64,000 bases of DNA from a virus (taxonomy: Duplodnaviria > Caudoviricetes): positions 32,001 to 96,000 of the IMG/VR virus record IMGVR_UViG_2896054739_000007. One strand, 5' to 3'. Position 1 is the first letter of the stretch; each line of letters begins with the position of its first letter. A model generated the notes under the pieces. That model was not told where the DNA came from and did no database searches. It saw nothing but the letters and a program-made list of their open reading frames with translations. Positions 11,197-57,885 of the stretch are shown here, piece by piece. The position numbers and the translations under genes are program-made.

Positions 11197-11718
11197 CTAA
11201 TCTTGATATCCATTTACTAGGACATTTTCATATAATTTTATTGTTTGTTTTGTACCAAAAATCTTCTTATTCAAGTCTTCGATACATTGTCTACAATACT
11301 GTTCATCAATACTTTTTACTTCTTTTTCTAATCCCCTACTTACTAATTCTTCTCTAACAATAGGAACAGAATCAAATGCTTCATTATCTGTATAATATTT
11401 GAGTAGTTCATCATTAGTTATTTCAGAAATAACTTCCTTGCAATTTTCTTCTTCTCCAAAATTCGAACAATGAAAACCACATCCACCATTTATCCCTTGA
11501 CTAAAACATGAATCTCCACCACTCAATATGTAACGATCATATGCATTTCTTTCAGATTGAATCCTCGGTTCTAACTCATGTTTTATTCGAAAATTAGCAC
11601 TATATAATTTATCATCTGTTTTTCTATATTCTCTTTGCAAATCCCCATATTCTTTTTGTAATTTTTCATACTTATATTTCAGATTTTCATATTTTTCTTC
11701 TATGGTGTCACTATACAA
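11197..11718 (-). CDS. Hypothetical coiled-coil protein
   Basis: ORF track. Confidence 0.6.
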   Translation of the reverse strand: MYSDTIEEKYENLKYKYEKLQKEYGDLQREYRKTDDKLYSANFRIKHELEPRIQSERNAYDRYILSGGDSCFSQGINGGCGFHCSNFGEEENCKEVISEITNDELLKYYTDNEAFDSVPIVREELVSRGLEKEVKSIDEQYCRQCIEDLNKKIFGTKQTIKLYENVLVNGYQD

Positions 11719-12662
11719 TATTTACATCACACCTTCCTTTTACACATTCCAAAATTCTATTTTTACCAATATTAAATATCTCTTCATCATTCTCAATACA
11801 AATACATTTCCTGGCTGTCCTAATAGTAGCTACGCAAGTTGTCATACTACCAGCCGTTGAATCAAGCACAGTATCGCCCTCATCAGTATAAGTTTTAATA
11901 ATTTCTTCTACTAATGCTACTGGCTTTTGAGTTGGAGTTAATGCACACTTTTGGGTATCTTTGGCGAATAGCCAAACTGACTTAGGAAATCTCTCTGTAC
12001 TGTCATATGTATGATTTTTGATTTCGTTGTAATTTGTTGACTGCTTACTATTTCTTTTGTGGGACGCTGTACTTACTTTCCTGATGTATCCACTTGTTTT
12101 CTGAGGATTATACGTTGGTTGTTTCTTATAGAAAACACACATATCCTCATGGTTTCTCATTGGCATTCTATTAGCATTCTGGAACCCTGTAGGTTGTGTT
12201 TTCTCCCAAATGAGATTGTATTTTCTCCCAAATGAGATTGTATTTCCACATCTCACGATTGCTCTCCATAAGATCAGCGGTAAACATTCCGTTTGCAAAT
12301 AGAATAATTGCGCCATTATCTTTAATAATTCTTTTATATTGAGTCCATAACCCTATAGACTTATTTTCTTCAAAATACGCAAGCGCACCATTATAATTAG
12401 TTTCTCCTTGCTTATAACACCACAAAAGAAAATCATCTTTATAAAATACCTTTGGTTTCTTTCTCACTTCTAAAGTTATATAGTCATTAAATGGAATTAC
12501 TATATCCCAAGCATTCCTGGCGGTCTGCCCAAACGGAAGATCTGTGATAATTGCATCTATAGATCTATCAGGAATATCATCCATCAGTTTTAGACAATCA
12601 CCTTGCCATAATTCATAATTATTATTCTCAAATATTTTCTTTTCCCAGAAAGGCATGATCAT
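11711..12662 (-). pseudogene. N4/N6 DNA methyltransferase frameshifted by a 22-bp tandem duplication
   Basis: TDLPF in the 5' ORF; PTQKP and LDSTAGS in the 3' ORF; duplicated KYNLIWEK-coding segment at 12199-12242. Confidence 0.88.
12199..12242. repeat. Perfect 2x22-bp tandem repeat ttttctcccaaatgagattgta
   Basis: Read directly. Confidence 0.95.
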
Positions 12663-12974
12663 CTTACGGTTGCAACACCTTTGTTCCTTTCTGTGTTATT
12701 TTTCTTAAACTTCCTTGATTTTATCTGCTAACAAATTTATTAATCTTGCACCATGCGGATATAACGCATTTTCCATTACTATGTAATCTAATTGCATCAT
12801 TCCTCTACCTTGATTTTCTTCAATAATATCTGCTAATATATTGAAAAAATCTGCTTGTTGCGCTGAATCCATATTCCAGAACTCTTCAGCTAATTCCTGT
12901 GGATTCATTTCTATATTAACCTCTCTTGTTACTATTTCTTTTCACCTCCTCTTGATGAAACAGATTTTTCATGG

Positions 12975-13289
12975 TTATTCATTATAGTTAATTACACCAC
13001 ATTCCTTTAAAATATCCATTGCAAATTTACCGACATCTTCAAATTTACTATGCTGAGTAGAAAATTTTGCAATCTGATCTACCATGTAAATTGTTTTTGA
13101 TACCTTTACTTGATCTTTCAGTCCGCCATGTTGAGTAATAGCATAAACGATATATGCCAAATCTTCTGGATTATACTCCTTTACTTCGTACCCAAAATCT
13201 TTCAACATTTTCTTGGTCATTTTTTCATCACTCAAGACTGTTTTCACCATCTTGTCAAGCTGTTCATCTGTTATCTTATTATCTTCCAT
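12975..13289 (-). CDS. Hypothetical protein
   Basis: SD AAGGAG, ATG. Confidence 0.7.
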   Translation of the reverse strand: MEDNKITDEQLDKMVKTVLSDEKMTKKMLKDFGYEVKEYNPEDLAYIVYAITQHGGLKDQVKVSKTIYMVDQIAKFSTQHSKFEDVGKFAMDILKECGVINYNE

Positions 13290-13305
13290 ATAATTTCTCC
13301 TTTAC

Positions 13306-13410
13306 TATTTTACACTTGACTACCTATCAGCTTTTGTATTATGTTTAATTAACATAATTTTGTTGAGTACAATATCTCTCAACTTTCAGATGCAAAATCA
13401 CCTGATTACT
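13306..13410 (-). ncRNA. Candidate guide-RNA scaffold downstream of cas12f/tnpB
   Basis: TCAGGTG-ATTTTG-CATCTGA stem, GTTGAG/CTCAAC stem, ATTATGTT/AACATAAT stem, ends GTGTAAAAT. Confidence 0.6.
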
Positions 13411-13423
13411 TACAACAGATTTA

Positions 13424-14698
13424 TTAAACAAAATCCGTTGACATAGCAATATTTCTACTTGCATTAAAGTCTGCATTTAACTCTGCACCACAAGATTTAC
13501 ATTTAAAATGTGCCTGATCAATCCTCTGTCCCTCCTCCCAATGTCCACAACAACTACAAATCTGTGAAGTATGATATGGATTTATCTTCCTTACTTCTAT
13601 TCCATATTTGGCAGCTTTATATGTAATAAACTGTTGAAGTTCATAAAAACTCCAATTTCTTAATATAAATTGATTTGAATCAAAACCGCTTAAATCTTCT
13701 ACATTTATGTATTTTGCTTTGTTCTTAACTGCAAAATCTACAACATTTTTACTGACATAATGGTTATATGTTTTTACAAAATTTCTTTCTCTGTCTTTTA
13801 ATTTCTCTAATGGTTTTAATTTCTTTTGTCTACCGTGCCCACCAGATGTTGATGCTAGGGATTTTTGTAATCTTCTTCTCTGTGACTGTAATTGTGTTCT
13901 AATTCTTAAAAAATCATCTTTAGAACCAATAGATTGTCTTATATAATCATTTGTATTCAATCCACACATAGCAGGTATAGCAAGTCCTAAATCTACACCA
14001 ACAACTATATTTTCATCCAATTCTAGTTCTTGCTTGGGGATATCCATACTAAGATTTAAAATAATTTTCTTACCATCAATTTGAATAGAAGATCCGCACA
14101 CCTTATAGTTCTCTTCAAATATCTGCTGAATTTCGCTTCGTAAATATGCTGATTTATGTGGATTACCGAAAATCATTTTGAATGTAATATTGTTTGCAAA
14201 TTTAATAAATACTTCTAAATCTTTTGAGTACAGATGATCTAAGAAATCTGTATGTGATTCATAATTATGATACATTCCATTGTCTTGGTGATAATTTGTA
14301 CTTCGTAATCTCACAAAATTAACATGGACTAATAATGGATTATTTTTTCTATATGTTGGCAGAGAGACTTTCCCACATAGCAACCCATTTTTACATGAAT
14401 TTGCAAAGTCTTGTTTTACTTGTTTCACTACATATCCTAAATTCATATTTTTTGCAAATTCTATTGATTTATCATAAGCACTCCCTTTTTTACTATTACT
14501 TACTCTTGAATATAATCTATTTAATTCTTTTCTGTCTTCTTTAGAAATATCTTTTATTGCAGCAATGTATAACGCACTCATATATTGATTCATCGCTTTA
14601 TTCTGATAGAAAATACCATCTCTAAGATATTTATAAACCCTATCTATTTCTTCTTTTTCTCCTAATGGAATTATTTGAATTTTTCTTGTTAATATCAA
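13424..14698 (-). CDS. Cas12f1-like/TnpB-family RNA-guided nuclease (about 424 aa)
   Basis: RuvC VGVDLG, INVEDL, NADFNA; zinc finger CSCC...CKSC; GGHGRQKK motif; SD CAGGAGG before TTG at 14698. Confidence 0.88.
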   Translation of the reverse strand: MILTRKIQIIPLGEKEEIDRVYKYLRDGIFYQNKAMNQYMSALYIAAIKDISKEDRKELNRLYSRVSNSKKGSAYDKSIEFAKNMNLGYVVKQVKQDFANSCKNGLLCGKVSLPTYRKNNPLLVHVNFVRLRSTNYHQDNGMYHNYESHTDFLDHLYSKDLEVFIKFANNITFKMIFGNPHKSAYLRSEIQQIFEENYKVCGSSIQIDGKKIILNLSMDIPKQELELDENIVVGVDLGLAIPAMCGLNTNDYIRQSIGSKDDFLRIRTQLQSQRRRLQKSLASTSGGHGRQKKLKPLEKLKDRERNFVKTYNHYVSKNVVDFAVKNKAKYINVEDLSGFDSNQFILRNWSFYELQQFITYKAAKYGIEVRKINPYHTSQICSCCGHWEEGQRIDQAHFKCKSCGAELNADFNASRNIAMSTDFV

Positions 14699-14730
14699 TC
14701 TATTTTGCCTCCTGTTTTGTATCATAAGCA

Positions 14731-14895
14731 ATTTTGACTTTGTATCTATATAATTTTATAAAAAATACAAAGTCCGTTACATCAAATTAGACTATAGCAA
14801 CTTTGTATCAATGCAATATTATATATATAAAATTACATAGATTTTAGTGATTAGAATATATCTATCACCTTTCGGCAGCAAAATCTACCGTAGTT
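14731..14895 (-). ncRNA. Second candidate guide-RNA scaffold upstream of cas12f/tnpB
   Basis: CGGTAG-ATTTTG-CTGCCG stem, AAAG, GTGAT/ATCAC stem, third stem, ACAAA, TGTAA; same layout as the downstream copy. Confidence 0.55.
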
Positions 14896-14958
14896 TATAC
14901 TAATTGTTGGTGGATTTTTTCCACCATTTTTCCAATAAAATCTCGAATTTATTGCTTA

Positions 14959-15870
14959 TTAATGTGACATTTTATCTGCTCTATGTAACTTCATTACTTT
15001 ATCATACAACCATTCGCCCCAAAATCGCTCATATTTTGACATTGTATCTTCTCCATGTTCTTTATCTTTTTCCCAAAAGTACGGAAACATATGTAAATTA
15101 ATCAAAATTGATACATCTAATTTATCTACACCAGACGGATATAAATAAAACAGACTGTCATATGCACCTACACAATGATGCTGATAGTAATGTGCTATAT
15201 TCGTTGTTTCTCCTTTTGAATTTACAAAAGTCTTTGTAAACGGTTTCCCACAATCATGTAAAAAACCAGCACATTCCAATAGTTTATCTTGTGCTAAAAA
15301 TGCACTTACTTTTCTACAATGTAATCCAAGAGTCATTGAATGATGTGGATTATCCTGCTCATAATTTAAATGATTATTTACCCAACATCCCATCACCTTA
15401 CGAATATCATCTTTAAATTCAATTGAAATATCATCCCACCCTTCAAACCAATAGGGTGTATTCCAATTCATATACATTCTTTTGATCACATCATATGGAA
15501 CATTTCTATCTCTTGAATCATTCCTATTACAACATTCAGCAAACGGTGTTGCCATAATAACGCACTTTTTATAACAAGGAATATTTTTTAATTCAGATAA
15601 AAATGCTCTACGCCTTTTTGAATTGATGTTGGTAGCATCATAAATAACATTTTTACCTTCTTTTAAATTCCCCTTGATTCTATCATGTAAAACTTTAAAA
15701 ACTTCTTCATTTTTATCCTGCGAATTTATATCACCACACAATTCTTTTCTAATTGTGTCTGAACTACAAATTATTGCTTCTAAATCATTTGATAATTCTT
15801 TTGCATAGGTAGATTTACCAGAGCCAGGCAAACCTACCATCATAACAAAAGTTGGTTTTGTATTATTCAT
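14959..15870 (-). CDS. Polynucleotide kinase (AAA_33) fused to HD domain
   Basis: GLPGSGKST, YDATN, HH...H...LHDCGKP. Confidence 0.85.
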   Translation of the reverse strand: MNNTKPTFVMMVGLPGSGKSTYAKELSNDLEAIICSSDTIRKELCGDINSQDKNEEVFKVLHDRIKGNLKEGKNVIYDATNINSKRRRAFLSELKNIPCYKKCVIMATPFAECCNRNDSRDRNVPYDVIKRMYMNWNTPYWFEGWDDISIEFKDDIRKVMGCWVNNHLNYEQDNPHHSMTLGLHCRKVSAFLAQDKLLECAGFLHDCGKPFTKTFVNSKGETTNIAHYYQHHCVGAYDSLFYLYPSGVDKLDVSILINLHMFPYFWEKDKEHGEDTMSKYERFWGEWLYDKVMKLHRADKMSH

Positions 15871-17194
15871 TTATAACTAACTCCTCTGCTTCCTCCATAT
15901 CTGGAGTATCCGCTTTATCCTTAATAATCCCTTCAAGTACCTTAAAACTGAAATTCTTATGTTTATATGCCGTAAATTTCTCTCGATTGTCAATTCTCAC
16001 TACAACTCCTTCTCTTACATGGGTCTTGCCAATCGGATCAGCACCATCATAATACTTCTCCACTCTCTCCATCAGATCTTCCCATGTAGTAAATACAAAT
16101 TTCTCAAAAGTAGGAACACACTTAATCCCTAGCTTCTCACATTCAATCTGTACCTGCTCCCAAGGAAGTTCTACAGCAAATCCATCCTCATTTGTCATAG
16201 TCATTCGATATACATAAATATCATTTTCGCCTGGTTTACACCCATATGAGAATACAGTTTCCTTACCATACTGTTTTTCAAATTCCTTATCTTTGACAAG
16301 TTTATTTGAACATCTTCCCATAATTGTCTGATCGCCTTCTGTATATCCAACAATCTCATAGAATACTTCTACACCTTTTGGAAGTTTATCTTTAAAAAAG
16401 TCCTGATATTTCTGTCTGAACGCATTACTACCATAATAGCCACCTTCATAATTTCTTAATGTGGTTCTTCTTGTCCCACTAACAACTGCAAATCGCTTAA
16501 TCTCTTTATCCCTAATTTTGAATACCTTCTTTAAAATAAAATGTCTCTTCTTTTTTACAATCTCAATAGCATTTGCAGTTCTAGCAGATGTACCATGCAT
16601 TTTAAGTGTTATGTAACAGGTATCGCCCTCTCTAAAAGCATTCTGATTATATGCAAGCTGCGCAGTATCAATATGCTCTACAAAAAATGGATAAGAAACT
16701 TTTTCCTTCTCTTCTTTCCTATTTCTATTTTTATTACCAGTGGAATTGTTTTCACATCTTCTCCGATTAGAATGCGGAATATATTTTCTACAAATTTCAT
16801 GTCCATCCAACATAGAAATCTGGTCACCATCTGATAATGTTTTTACATCTACATATTTACTTAATACTTCGATTGGCAATACAAGCCCGTCTGACTTTTC
16901 ACCTCTAAGTTTAAGAGCTGTGATATTTCTCTTATCAGGATCAAGATATCCTCCAACATTATTTCCGTTTTCGTCCTTTAAACGAACAAGATTATTATCA
17001 CATGCAAACTCTTCACTTAATTGTCCATCCACAGGGAAATAAATTACTCTCTGTCCTTCTGTATAATTCAAATCTACAATTACATTATTTCCAAAGATTG
17101 TTGCACACTGCAATCTATCAGCATTACTATGTTTTCTAAGCTGCTTAATCGTTGTTATATATCCACAATATCCATTTACTCTATTCTGTTCCAA
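15863..17194 (-). CDS. RNA ligase (Rnl2/DRB0094-like, N-terminal OB domain)
   Basis: HSNADRL, LKMHGTS, EIVG, REGVVVR, YKHK. Confidence 0.88.
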   Translation of the reverse strand: MEQNRVNGYCGYITTIKQLRKHSNADRLQCATIFGNNVIVDLNYTEGQRVIYFPVDGQLSEEFACDNNLVRLKDENGNNVGGYLDPDKRNITALKLRGEKSDGLVLPIEVLSKYVDVKTLSDGDQISMLDGHEICRKYIPHSNRRRCENNSTGNKNRNRKEEKEKVSYPFFVEHIDTAQLAYNQNAFREGDTCYITLKMHGTSARTANAIEIVKKKRHFILKKVFKIRDKEIKRFAVVSGTRRTTLRNYEGGYYGSNAFRQKYQDFFKDKLPKGVEVFYEIVGYTEGDQTIMGRCSNKLVKDKEFEKQYGKETVFSYGCKPGENDIYVYRMTMTNEDGFAVELPWEQVQIECEKLGIKCVPTFEKFVFTTWEDLMERVEKYYDGADPIGKTHVREGVVVRIDNREKFTAYKHKNFSFKVLEGIIKDKADTPDMEEAEELVINE

Positions 17195-30808: not shown

Positions 30809-30882
30809 TGGATTCTCTGGGGCTCAACCCCGGGACTGCTCGGTTACGAGCCAAGTTTTCTAACCGACTGAAATAAGAACCC
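30809..30882 (-). tRNA. Aberrant tRNA, anticodon CGT (Thr), Ile2/Met-like body, degenerate T-arm
   Basis: Acceptor GGGTTCT/AGAATCC, anticodon loop CTCGTAA, T-loop GTTGAGC. Confidence 0.6.
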
Positions 30883-30886
30883 ATAA

Positions 30887-30958
30887 CTGGGCTAACCAGA
30901 TTCGAACTGGTGAATGCAGGAGTCAAAGTCCTGTGCCTTACCGCTTGGCGATAGCCCA
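30887..30958 (-). tRNA. tRNA-Gln(TTG)
   Basis: TGGGCTATCGCCAAGCGGTAAGGCACAGGACTTTGACTCCTG...GTTCGAATC; canonical cloverleaf, no encoded CCA. Confidence 0.95.
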
Positions 30959-31785: not shown

Positions 31786-32741
31786 TTAAACACTTATCCG
31801 CCTTGCTTTTAAATCATTCAAAGCTGCCATACCCTTTAGCTTATCATTTTGCTTTAAATTCTGTAATGGTGTACTCTGTTGTAACATCTCTGTTGGCGAC
31901 TGTTCATATGCTTCACACATAGCACAAAATGTTTTCATTACATCAGCCCACTCAGACTCGTCAATCCACTGTATATATGGAGTACCTCCTCTCTGCTTTA
32001 CACAGATCCCATACTTATACTGAAGATTCTTATATAATTCATTCCACATCTTGCTAAAATGAATTCCTGTCACAGCAGCAAGTTTTCTAATACCGGCATT
32101 AAGTTTATTCCTGTCTTTCCATTCCAGAATACCTTCTGCTAACGCCTTATTATCATTTTCTAACTTCTGAATATGACGATTCTTAAATTCTACCAATTTT
32201 GCAGATGCTACTGCCACAGCCGTTGCATCACCACTAGCAACTGCCATACCTACTGATAACATAAGACTCTGCTCTTCATCAATGTCGTGTGTCTTAGTTT
32301 CGTCAGAAGTTTTCTCTTCTATATTGAGTAACTGTGTGCGAACTTCTTTTGCAACATTTGAATCTCTAAGTAACATTCCAACACGTAATATCGCTCTACG
32401 AGGAAAAACTTTCTGACCTCTTGTCGGGAAATCAAGTAATGTCCCATCTTTAAAGAAAAATGTCACCTTCCCTTTTGATGTTTTCAAACTTTCATATTGC
32501 AAGTTTGAAAGTTCCTTGTATTTTACAATACACATTCCATCCAATTCTAATTCATCGCAATGCCTACTATAAATAGATACAATTGCATCCTCTCCAACTT
32601 CATAGAAATCTGCAACTTGTTTAACAGTCGATAGTTCTGTTCCTGGCAATAATAATAATTTTTTACCTTTTCCAAAACTTCATAATGACACACTGCATTA
32701 TCCCTCAATTTCCTGTCATTAATAAATTGTGTTTCTACCAT
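31786..32741 (-). pseudogene. Antirepressor-like protein split by a frameshift in an A6 run
   Basis: 5' ORF ends EVLEKVK, 3' frame resumes LLLLPGTE; FPRRAILRVGMLLRDS.VAKEVR motif. Confidence 0.7.
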
Positions 32742-54040: not shown

Positions 54041-54685
54041 CTACGCTGCATAAAATGTTCCATCTTCTAAAAATTCCCATCCATTAGCTTCACAAGTTTC
54101 TGTTACTTCTTCTTCATCCGCTTCATAAAAATATTTATAGCCGTATTCTTCATATTGTTTAGAAAGCATTACAAACATATCAGCAACTAATTTTTCCATT
54201 TTTCGGATTGTGTCAACCTGAATATTTTTATACTGCTGATATTCAAGATCATATATCCAACCTTCAGCAAAATCCGTCTTATCAGATACGCAATAATTAT
54301 AATGTCCGTCATTATAAGGCAATGTAACAGTTCTTCCACAAACTTCCATATATGCCTCTATGGTCTTCTGCTCATGTTCCGTCATATAATCCCAAAAATC
54401 CTTGAATGTTTCACCACAATATAACTTGTTCCGGATTACCTTGAATACGTCCATCAAATCAAGTTTTCCGTATATATTTAAGCCGTCCCCCTGACAATAG
54501 CCTAAAGAATATTGCATCTTTAAGTTACTGTTAGAAAAAATATTGTGTAAATCTTCTGTGTAAATTTTCGAAAATTCGTCATTTCTGCATGGATCATCAA
54601 GATACCACTGATTTACTTTCTCTTTTGCTTCCTCCGATAATTCAGGATAAGTATATACATTATAAGTTTCTGTTACTGTACGCAT
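54041..54685 (-). CDS. Acidic phage protein, possible anti-restriction factor
   Basis: YTYPELSEEAKE, QGDG, CEANGWEFLEDG. Confidence 0.45.
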   Translation of the reverse strand: MRTVTETYNVYTYPELSEEAKEKVNQWYLDDPCRNDEFSKIYTEDLHNIFSNSNLKMQYSLGYCQGDGLNIYGKLDLMDVFKVIRNKLYCGETFKDFWDYMTEHEQKTIEAYMEVCGRTVTLPYNDGHYNYCVSDKTDFAEGWIYDLEYQQYKNIQVDTIRKMEKLVADMFVMLSKQYEEYGYKYFYEADEEEVTETCEANGWEFLEDGTFYAA

Positions 54686-56250
54686 AAAAATTTTCTCCAT
54701 TCTATTTAATTTTCCAATAATAAAAGCAAGCAACATTTCCACTTGTCACTTGCTCTATACTTCCCTTTCTATGATGCTTATTTGTCTTATTTAAGGACTT
54801 AATGCAACGCACATACATATTTGCATATGCGCTGATTTAAGGCTTTAAATGGGCTTGTATACGGTTTAAACACCAATGATTTTTTGATTAAATCCAAAAA
54901 GATTTATAAGAAAATCCGTATTGAAATTCAGTAAAAGACGGAAGCCACATTTATTAAAATATCTAAGTGTAATTCCAAACGCTTCCCAAGAAGTCCCTCC
55001 AATTTTAAAACGCCATCCATTATCAAACTTTCTAAATCCATGCTTTTTCATGCTCATTCCTCCATTGTTGAAGCAGTAGTTTCATTGATGTGTCAAATTC
55101 CATTTAAGACACCATGCCTTATATTCTTCATCTGTAATTATTCCATTTTGATAATCATGCTTTATCTCTATTGCATCTAAACACTCTTGAGATAATGTAT
55201 AACTTTTTACTCTTCCTGCAATTTTCCTATTCGCTGCCAAATAACATTGCATGGATAATTCTGCTATAATTTTATCTATTGCATTTACATTCTTTTTCAT
55301 TTTTACGATCTCCATATTTATATTTTATCACTTTCCGATAACCAATGAAATACACGATTTATTCTTTCCAAAATTTCATAATCGTTTCATTATCTTCTAA
55401 TACTAAACCGCACTTATAGCCGTGTCTATCTGCAATCTCAATCAATTCTCTGTTTGTCTTGCTATTTTCATATGGAATCATATAGAAAGAATTTGCTGTT
55501 ACTTTATGTAGTTCCACGCAATTTAACGGATAACATTCCGTTTGCCTAGTTTCGTCATTATAGCAACAGGCGCAATTATTAATCACCATGCAAATATCAA
55601 AAATAATGTCCTTGTGTGCCTTTTTACGTTTCTGTTCTGCATATGCTTTAAAATCCATGTTATCCCCCCAGTTTTTAAAATGTCATAACTTTTTCTTGTG
55701 TCATCATCAAAAATATTCCAAGTGGCAACGCAACAAGTGAAAATGTTGCATCTCCATCCAGCACAAACGGCGTTACAATTCCAATAGTTGCCATTATTGC
55801 ACCTGATAACTGTTGTTTCATATAATAAAAGCGTTCTGTCCTCTGTTTGATTCTCCACTTTTCTTCCCGGCGGTTATATTCTTTGAGCCATTCTTCATAT
55901 GTGTAAACTGTTTCTATTGCTTCAGATCCGATATTGTATATTATCATTATTCTTTTTCCTCTTTGTTTGCTGCCTACTTTGTTTTATATTTTCATTACTT
56001 TAATTACATACTATTCATTAATATTAAAGTAATCATCTATCAAATATTGAAGTTTGTCACATGTATTTAAAATTTCTCTTGTTTGATCGTTTTCAAAAAC
56101 TTCTTCTGAAGCTTTATTACATAAATCTGAAATCTGTTTTAATATATTTTTCATTGTTTCAGTCATTGTCTTTCCCCCTAATCTAAATTTTCTAATAGTT
56201 CCATTGCTATTTTAATTTCCATTTTAGTTATCTCCTTTCAAATTACAATT

Positions 56251-57788: not shown

Positions 57789-57885
57789 AAGCACAATTAT
57801 TTTTGGCTGGGCGGTGTATCCAGCATCTCAGGTACTCTTGCGAGTGTGTCGGGAACCATTTCCGACCTCAAAAATAATCATGCTT
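57789..57885 (-). ncRNA. Structured small RNA downstream of PBECR-like nuclease
   Basis: 16-bp closing stem around three hairpins; TTGACA-17-TATATT promoter at 57942-57914. Confidence 0.65.

Follow-up and report, generated by a model that had tools for sequence, protein, structure and literature searches.

How does a compact phage nuclease obtain its guides when no intact CRISPR (clusters of regularly interspaced short palindromic repeats) array lies beside its gene? The question is raised by a 64,000-nt stretch of a tailed-phage genome (Caudoviricetes; IMG/VR record IMGVR_UViG_2896054739_000007, positions 32,001 to 96,000; hereafter, the window), in which the gene for a 424-aa Cas12f1-like protein is bracketed by two similar structured elements. 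The original prediction, made from the letters alone, took this locus for a TnpB-to-Cas12f intermediate with two pre-fused guides. We arrive at a different reading: the cassette is probably a phage-borne, adaptation-less type V-F1 CRISPR-Cas12f1 system in a reduced, hard-wired state, with two guide modules that are each led by a trans-activating CRISPR RNA (tracrRNA). That the locus comprises a Cas12f1 with tracrRNA modules is highly probable; that its downstream module, module A, is a working guide against related phages is a more tentative proposal, to which we give slightly less than even weight.

The nuclease and its two scaffolds

The nuclease gene and the two scaffolds share one strand:

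13424-14698, minus strand: cas12f1, encoding 424 aa; triad D236/E334/D410 plus zinc finger
13346-13405, minus strand: candidate tracrRNA scaffold of module A, with stem 1 at 13386-13405 (loop AUUUUG) and stem 2 at 13362-13383
14830-14891, minus strand: candidate tracrRNA scaffold of module B, with stem 1 at 14873-14890, stem 2 at 14847-14868 and the linker UAAAAU; about 95% identical to the upstream tracrRNA of L049, which leads an intact array

Cas12f1 enzymes work as asymmetric homodimers, one per guide RNA, and cleave double-stranded DNA in a manner that depends on a protospacer-adjacent motif (PAM). The gene in the window starts with TTG, eight bases past an AGGAGG ribosome-binding site, and its homologs likewise open with MILTRK. 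The D-E-D triad of the RuvC domain, which had been read as intact, is indeed so (GVD236, NVE334 and NAD410), and CxxC pairs are present at 381-384 and 400-403. The protein matches the Pfam family Cas12f1-like_TNB (PF07282) at 3e-24 and, in NCBIfam, the generic guided_TnpB subfamily. A search against all PDB chains ranks CnCas12f1 (8HR5) at the top with an E-value of 7e-89; next come 9NZP (its 415-aa chain, 1e-69), further Cas12f orthologs and AsCas12f (8J12, 1e-50), whereas ISDra2 TnpB (8EXA, 2e-5) and the LaTranC chains (1e-3) are far weaker. We take 9NZP to be RhCas12f1 from its chain size and from a report of cryo-electron microscopy complexes for Al3Cas12f, OsCas12f and RhCas12f (PMC13186708). 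Because Cas12f1 structures rank so far above TnpB and LaTranC, the clostridial Cas12f1 likeness that the original prediction had named holds. The length (within about 400-550 aa), the D-E-D triad, the TNB zinc finger and a validated Cas12f1 as nearest neighbor all agree with this assignment, and the distance to LaTranC (1e-3 vs 7e-89) places the protein apart from TranC, the transposon-CRISPR intermediates that branch off IS605 TnpB outside the known Cas12 subtypes and employ omega-RNA-like as well as CRISPR RNAs. As judged from its sequence, the protein is a type V-F1 Cas12f1 of the clostridial type. It is encoded once, by the only TNB-domain gene in the whole assembly.

The two scaffolds are 78% identical, with compensatory changes, as had been proposed, and the predicted stem coordinates stand for both stems of both copies. 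Read along the minus strand, module A runs from 13405 to 13346, beginning 18 nt past the stop codon, and module B from 14891 to 14830, about 130 nt ahead of the start codon. Both follow one plan: stem 1 with the loop AUUUUG, AAAG, stem 2, (C/U)AAAAU and (C)UAUGU(U)AAUU. Both flanks are more stable than shuffled sequence (z-scores of -2.7 and -4.9). A covariance model, R1, built on 12 copies from the family scores 69.3 bits (E 1.5e-12) for module A and 75.8 bits (E 5e-14) for module B, and finds nothing beyond these two across the 4.7-Mb assembly. For comparison we used relatives with proteins 40-88% identical to that of the window (from 19 loci in IMG/VR, two in genomes and several contigs from Logan/ENA; individual loci are labeled L). 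R1 matches at every related locus, on the strand of the gene, often in two to four copies placed upstream, downstream or both; it has no match in cassette-free relatives. Metagenome homologs of the nuclease number more than 1,700, many of them on contigs of 60-220 kb.

At almost all related loci the scaffold passes through a ATTTGAGG-type junction directly into a mini-array, with repeats of about 36 nt of the type GTTTTAGA...AAATTACATAGGTACAAAAC, differing spacers of about 30 nt, and two to eight repeats. The scaffold segment CTATGTAA is an anti-repeat to the repeat segment TTACATAG, pairing with TTAYATAG in the repeats. Across 29 copies aligned to R1, stems 1 and 2 are paired in 93% of cells and doubly changed in 60 cells, values that none of 500 shuffles reaches; an independent MAFFT alignment gives the same picture of covariation. 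Moreover, the loop of stem 1 covaries with the last bases of the repeat, as in these loop/repeat-tail pairs:

ATTTGA / TCAAAT
ATTTGG / CCAAA
ATTTTA / TAAAA
TTTCG / CGAAA
CCTTTT / AAAAGG
GTTCTG / CGGAAC, in L015

The mean helix is 5.1 bp against 4.62 ± 0.12 for shuffled pairings, a value reached in 1 of 5000 shuffles; the test is conservative, since a regular expression mislocated five of the repeat tails. A pseudoknot between the same loop and the (C/T)AAAAT linker had originally been predicted; that pairing does no better than shuffled ones (879/5000), and the loop covaries instead with the 3' tail of the repeat (..CAAAA/G..). In Cas12 tracrRNAs generally, a 5' element pairs with the 3' end of the repeat (bioRxiv 10.1101/2025.01.20.633832). 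With an anti-repeat, an array-leading position and a covariation of loop and tail that agrees with this rule, both scaffolds are best described as predicted tracrRNAs of a V-F1 system, and in the window itself both the anti-repeat and the 5' element able to pair with the repeat end are present.

The tracrRNA-to-array junction ATTTGAGG followed by 36-nt repeats of the GTTTTAGA type occurs in L002, L004, L007, L008, L012, L021, L024 and L026. We take this junction and repeat to resemble the leader anchor and repeat of type II-A systems, which suggests that the spacers of the relatives' arrays may be loaded by II-A adaptation machinery of the host.

Upstream of the gene, module B continues into what is left of an array:

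~14826-14840, minus strand: anti-repeat CUAUGUAAUUUU of the tracrRNA
14801-14825, minus strand: repeat 1, 5'-truncated, retaining the half that pairs with the anti-repeat and the ..GAUACAAAG(U) tail
14772-14800, minus strand: the sole true spacer, ~28-29 nt, between repeats 1 and 2 and unlike its counterpart in L049
14738-14771, minus strand: repeat 2, 34 nt, whose 5' UUUGUAU is complementary to its own 3' AUACAAAG (compare the GUUUU...AAAAC repeats of the family)
14714-14737, minus strand: remnant of repeat 3, abutting repeat 2, with the cas12f ribosome-binding site directly after it

The nearest relative with informative flanks, L049 (protein 86% identical), aligns from the junction palindrome and the GC-rich hairpin at the cassette edge onward (both described below), and its upstream order is tracrRNA, repeat 1, a 31-nt spacer, repeat 2, a second 31-nt spacer, repeat 3 and ribosome-binding site. 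Relative to it, the window lacks 19 nt at the junction of tracrRNA and array (with the ATTTGA motif) together with the 5' part of repeat 1, and about 44 nt that held spacer 2 and the 5' portion of repeat 3. The half of the repeat that a mature CRISPR RNA requires, the pairing segment and the GAUACAAAG(U) tail, is intact ahead of the spacer at 14772-14800. The description of the locus as array-less is thus correct insofar as no intact array remains, and has to be amended for the three repeat remnants and one spacer at 14714-14820, which are homologous to the L049 array; a single repeat half, fused to the tracrRNA, lies downstream of the gene.

That downstream module has the following parts beyond its stems:

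13331-13356, minus strand: fusion of the anti-repeat with a repeat's 3' half, giving the hairpin UAUGUU-AAUUA-AACAUA and then the tail AUACAAAAG
13311-13330, minus strand: candidate hard-wired guide CUGAUAGGUAGUCAAGUGUA (guide A), of which 18-20 of 20 nt match both arms of an inverted-repeat element in relatives

In module A nothing separates the anti-repeat UAUGUUAAUU from AAACAUA-AUACAAAAG, which is the 3' half of a repeat and ends in a tail of 9 nt. L049 has the same fused hairpin, with a loop 4 nt shorter and a compensatory change of U-A to C-G in stem 1; L057 has another fused module, whose loop AUCUUA covaries with the tail UAAGA. Solo tracrRNA-repeat-guide units also occur in L012 and L025. 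Because the anti-repeat is joined to a repeat half in the window, L049 and L057 alike, module A is in all likelihood a natural single-guide RNA (sgRNA), and its fused layout recurs in cassettes of the family. Of the two pre-fused guides originally proposed, the downstream one survives in this form, and the upstream one is replaced by a tracrRNA that runs into a decayed mini-array. The parts of the downstream unit also need renaming: what had been called stem 3 is the hairpin of anti-repeat and repeat, ACAAA is the tail of the repeat, and TGTAA falls within the guides, outside the scaffold. The guide accordingly starts at 13330 (CTGATAGG...), directly after the tail AUACAAAAG and about 25 nt upstream of the guide first proposed. 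The fused guide of L049, which shares the core GGTAGT(C/G)AAG with guide A, is absent from IMG/VR in an exact-match scan.

A conventional array elsewhere in the genome could have supplied guides instead. No repeat compatible with these tracrRNAs occurs in the assembly outside modules A and B. The binned host genome has cas1 and two arrays (C203:34843-37066 and C216:~54667-54822); both arrays have unrelated repeats, and cas1 is on contig C203 only, beside the host array. Y1 tnpA genes are on contigs C15 and C182 only, so that C112, the contig that holds the window, carries neither cas1 nor tnpA, as had been noted for the immediate neighborhood.

Guide A and the inverted-repeat element of related phages

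The 20-mer of guide A has one exact match in the metagenome collection, L043, and is present in L043-L048; an exact-match scan of IMG/VR does not contain it. The 18-mer CTGATAGGTAGTCAAGTG is found in L028 and L033 and in the IMG/VR phages L070 and L071. One 20-mer match in so large a collection might arise by chance, but the context of the L043 match excludes this: it lies in a related phage, in a syntenic variable region, and in a motif that is doubled as the arms of an inverted repeat. Between the phage of L043-L048 and C112, DNA identity is 90% in the ADP-ribosylglycohydrolase gene and 87% in the methyltransferase gene, and target-bearing phages are overall 87-92% identical to C112 in the flanking genes. 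The guide thus matches close relatives (L028, L033, L043-L048, L070 and L071), as in virus-borne mini-CRISPR arrays; guide matches in related phages, for which the original prediction had proposed a search, do exist.

At the L043-L048 site CTGATAGGTAGTCAAGTG occurs twice, forming both arms of an inverted-repeat element of about 125 bp (for example at L044:2911-3034, L028:8230-8355 and L070:7018-7140). Conservation of the element is about 90% in L028 and L033, whose polynucleotide kinase (pnk) gene is identical, and in L070 and L071. Both arms are preceded by CAYT (gagCATT and aacACT). The element lies 16-23 nt ahead of a start codon, each time that of a different gene, and its neighbors are unrelated to ORF104, an open reading frame (ORF) of the cassette; one neighbor in L070/L071 has about 70% DNA identity to C112 66481-67234. 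In its position and spread, the element behaves like a mobile regulatory or boundary module, as far as sequence comparison can tell. In the window, the cassette replaces the interior and the left arm of the element, and the sequence shared with the relatives starts precisely at guide position +1. The guide is therefore flanking backbone DNA, as had been suggested, present also in relatives without the cassette; because it equals the DNA that flanks the cassette, its logic would be that of TnpB retention or homing.

The element itself has perfect or near-perfect 18-bp arms and a tiny reverse-strand ORF (MKTTELILLND), and matches Rfam at chance level only. The guide-A motif was also considered as a general phage promoter and rejected, since it is single-copy in the 190 kb of C112, the one copy being that beside the repeat tail. 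Scans for promoters and terminators gave no usable signal, the DNA being AT-rich.

Edges and setting of the cassette

The cassette has recognizable boundaries:

14936-14951: TAAAT-N6-TTTTA, the junction palindrome immediately past the stop codon of pnk, at the left edge of the variable region
14908-14926: GGTGG-A6-CCACC, a GC-rich hairpin at the cassette's 5' edge that L049 has as well
12975-13289, minus strand: ORF104, inside the palindrome-bounded unit
12956-12971: second junction palindrome, after ORF104

The 16-bp palindrome at 14936-14951 reads TAAAT-TCGAGA-TTTTA, and homology with phages that have an identical pnk breaks inside it; the L049 cassette starts at an equivalent palindrome in the same place. 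Both copies follow the pattern T(G/A)AA(A/T)-N6-(A/T)TT(C/T)A and bracket the tracrRNA of module B, cas12f, the module A sgRNA and ORF104. ORF104 always accompanies this cassette and is absent from other Cas12f cassettes; a neighbor gene in L049 likewise always sits beside cas12f. Phages with an identical Pnk carry one of several gene sets after pnk: PcfJ, YonG and flotillin; a Gp5.9-like RecBCD inhibitor and a Dam methylase; or the cassette. A clean empty allele, for which the original prediction had proposed a search of related phages, was not found: the identical-pnk phages carry other gene sets after the palindrome, and none shows a simple deletion of the cassette.

Cassettes appear to move between phage genomes as units that include the terminal guide-length stretch, because L021 and L023 share a cassette in different contexts. 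In these two loci the same Cas12f cassette stands in two genomic contexts, and the shared block runs from a terminator-like hairpin, which lies about 230 nt ahead of the upstream tracrRNA, to about 16-21 nt past the last repeat.

The whole window corresponds to C112:59646-123645 in a source assembly of 4.7 Mb and 282 contigs. C112 (190 kb) has a GC content of 33%, compared with 42.6% assembly-wide. Because the viral contigs related to it in IMG/VR measure 150-200 kb, C112 is, on present sequence comparison, a large phage genome or a prophage-sized block, and the host of the cassette would be a large gut phage. Neighboring genes on the minus strand include an RNA ligase (15863-17194), pnk with an HD domain (14959-15870), the 104-aa ORF and several DNA methyltransferases. 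An N6/N4 DNA methyltransferase gene at 11711-12662 (minus strand) consists of two overlapping ORFs of 163 aa and 201 aa; its counterpart in the related phage L044, 87% identical, is a single ORF of 278 aa, which suggests a possible frameshift or split gene. At gathering thresholds, Rfam reports no known family within 13200-15000, its only matches in the window being a skipping-rope RNA (RF02924, 79.6 bits) and two tRNAs. The skipping-rope RNA and the two tRNA genes are at 57798-57876 and 30809-30958, all on the minus strand. Searches of the cassette and both modules against INPHARED phages by megablast and blastn gave chance-level matches only, and the 8-spacer array of L008 gave none.

Readings of the locus and their meaning

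In the reading that we prefer, a single Cas12f1 would be served by two guide modules on its own strand. Module B would provide a tracrRNA that leads into a decayed mini-array with one usable repeat half and one spacer. In module A, a deletion would have fused the anti-repeat to the 3' half of a single repeat, so that one transcript could fold as a natural sgRNA: stem 1, stem 2, the hairpin of anti-repeat and repeat, a pseudoknot of AUUUUG with the CAAAA/G tail, and then a 20-nt guide. A Cas12f dimer loaded with this RNA may cut the inverted-repeat element of related phages during co-infection, and the phage's own copy may be spared because the repeat tail occupies the PAM position. The outcome would be exclusion of competitors, into which recombinational repair might also copy the cassette. 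The fused, array-poor state is probably derived, by secondary decay or re-fusion, and not an intermediate between TnpB and Cas12f, because array-bearing loci span the whole range of identity and module B is a visibly deleted array.

Several observations weigh against this reading. The 1.7-kb cassette is identical in all nine copies that were sampled, which give no population-level sign of selection. The CAYT that precedes both arms differs from the PAMs of OsCas12f1 (YTTH) and RhCas12f1 (NCCD) (PMC10090079). The match to relatives covers 18-20 nt only, and the same sequence is a conserved leader about 16-23 nt before start codons; guide A beside the repeat tail could be a recombination scar at a module boundary instead of a selected guide. 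The upstream array lacks its leader junction and looks frozen or decaying, and its spacer went unmatched in scans of the assembly, of INPHARED and IMG/VR, of the metagenome collection and of the fetched loci. Nor did blasting the relatives' arrays against the host assembly and all fetched loci give PAM-revealing protospacers; only repeats matched repeats. Much of this would fit a decaying relic with guides that have ceased to matter, in which recombination at a module boundary placed a backbone leader behind the tail: the upstream array has lost its leader junction and one spacer to deletions, the remaining spacer is without a target, the 18-nt motif stands before four unrelated genes in relatives in the manner of a mobile regulatory or boundary element, and junction palindromes delimit the region, a mosaic hot spot. 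We nevertheless hold a relic to be unlikely. The nuclease has an intact ORF and every catalytic residue, compensatory changes preserve the pairing in both scaffolds, L049 and L057 have kept the fused module, and identity with relatives begins at exactly guide +1 and extends over a functional guide length.

An idea of similarly low probability is that the cassette serves phages as an RNA-guided element for homing or marker exclusion. The sgRNA of module A would then direct Cas12f1 to both arms of the element at the same variable locus, and repair of the breaks would draw on the genome that bears the cassette; conversion could reach from the palindrome after pnk as far as the next stretch in common, copying cas12f, both modules and a hitch-hiking ORF104. 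If this were true, an active Cas12f would be back in the selfish lifestyle of TnpB, with phage recombination replacing the transposase. The original proposal of an evolutionary intermediate that never had an array, with two pre-fused guides akin to omega-RNAs, draws on an order of gene, scaffold and guide that mimics TnpB with its omega-RNA, on the absence of cas1/2/4 genes and on a guide that is flanking DNA. We regard it as very improbable: the protein is nearer to Cas12f1 (E 7e-89 to 1e-50) than to ISDra2 TnpB (2e-5), relatives at 40-88% identity have tracrRNAs and real mini-arrays, the repeat remnants of the window are homologous to the intact L049 array and visibly deleted relative to it, the scaffold does not overlap the ORF, tnpA is absent from C112 and the gene is single-copy. 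Similar same-strand hairpins on either side of a tnpB-like gene are also an IS605 signature, so the flanking hairpins might have been IS200/IS605-type transposon ends recognized by TnpA and not guide scaffolds. This is barely credible when each copy is followed by an anti-repeat and repeats, the loop covaries with the repeat tail, some loci have three to four copies on one side of the gene, and C112 has no TnpA beside a gene that is single-copy in the assembly; a TnpB/OMEGA element would show TnpA, ends or near-identical multiple copies, against the single TNB gene and two scaffolds in the whole assembly. Autoregulation, with one of the RNAs guiding Cas12f to its own promoter or ribosome-binding region in the manner of the long tracrRNA form of Cas9, is brought to mind by the repeat tail at 14714, which runs directly into AGGAGG and the start codon. 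We give it very little credence, since an array end ahead of the gene is an ordinary layout seen in many relatives, a 10-nt complementarity within 14731-14782 is better accounted for by the complementary 5' and 3' ends of the repeat itself, and cutting at a perfect self-match by an active nuclease would be lethal if a PAM were present.

A hard-wired Cas12f1 system, our favored interpretation, has partial parallels in several known systems. It resembles the V-F1 (formerly V-U3) clostridial systems of CnCas12f1, RhCas12f1, OsCas12f1 and AsCas12f1 in protein family, size (~415-500 aa), triad and zinc finger, in a tracrRNA with 5' stems, an anti-repeat and pairing to the 3' end of the repeat, and in having no adaptation genes; the Cas12f branch has been described as linked to arrays only, without Cas1, Cas2 or Cas4 (PMC10691335). 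It differs from them in being phage-encoded, with tracrRNA genes on both sides of the nuclease gene, an array reduced to one upstream spacer plus a fused single repeat downstream, and a scaffold of only about 60 nt ahead of the anti-repeat. In nuclease-dead Cas12f derivatives, the array shrank to half a repeat and fusion with the tracrRNA yielded a re-emergent omega-RNA, with duplication of the unit (Altae-Tran et al. 2023, PMC10691335). The window appears to follow the same route of re-fusion as those sigma-E-associated proteins (PMC10691335; PMC13472631), but its nuclease is predicted to be catalytically intact, it is phage-borne without a sigma factor, and its guide matches related-phage DNA and not a host promoter.

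TnpB with its omega-RNA (IS200/IS605, ISDra2) takes its guide from the DNA that flanks the element and cuts the empty site for retention or homing. The window shares with it the order of gene, scaffold and guide, a guide that is the DNA just past the cassette, and a matching site that has a different 5' neighbor in cassette-free relatives, by which the own copy would be protected. Unlike TnpB, the cassette has no TnpA or transposon ends, is single-copy, encodes a protein of the Cas12f1 group and retains an upstream CRISPR remnant; unlike the omega-RNA, module A starts 18 nt past the stop codon, without overlapping the ORF, and has a hairpin derived from a CRISPR repeat. Virus-borne mini-arrays directed against close relatives are established (Medvedeva et al. 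2019, PMC6858448). Like them and like the compact Cas12 enzymes of phages (Cas-phi; the 'Cas12 hacker', 10.1101/2025.01.20.633832), the cassette combines a minimal guide and close-relative targets with a lack of adaptation genes; unlike the mini-arrays, this phage brings its own effector and tracrRNAs, and has one guide hard-wired outside an array.

Phage-borne Cas12f1 loci with tracrRNA-led mini-arrays were already known. What is new here is, on the one hand, a guide that starts at 13330 and matches an inverted-repeat element in related phages without the cassette and, on the other, a very short natural Cas12f sgRNA, with a scaffold of about 60 nt, a fused repeat half and a guide, which would be a ready-made minimal design for a 424-aa nuclease. 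The re-fusion of tracrRNA and repeat, described earlier in nuclease-dead Cas12f, is met here in a phage enzyme that is predicted to be active. The match of guide A would fit either interference between phages or homing. The fixed guide against sister phages is the most interesting point of the locus: since it faces them at the same mosaic locus, it lets the roles of exclusion weapon and homing element be tested directly.

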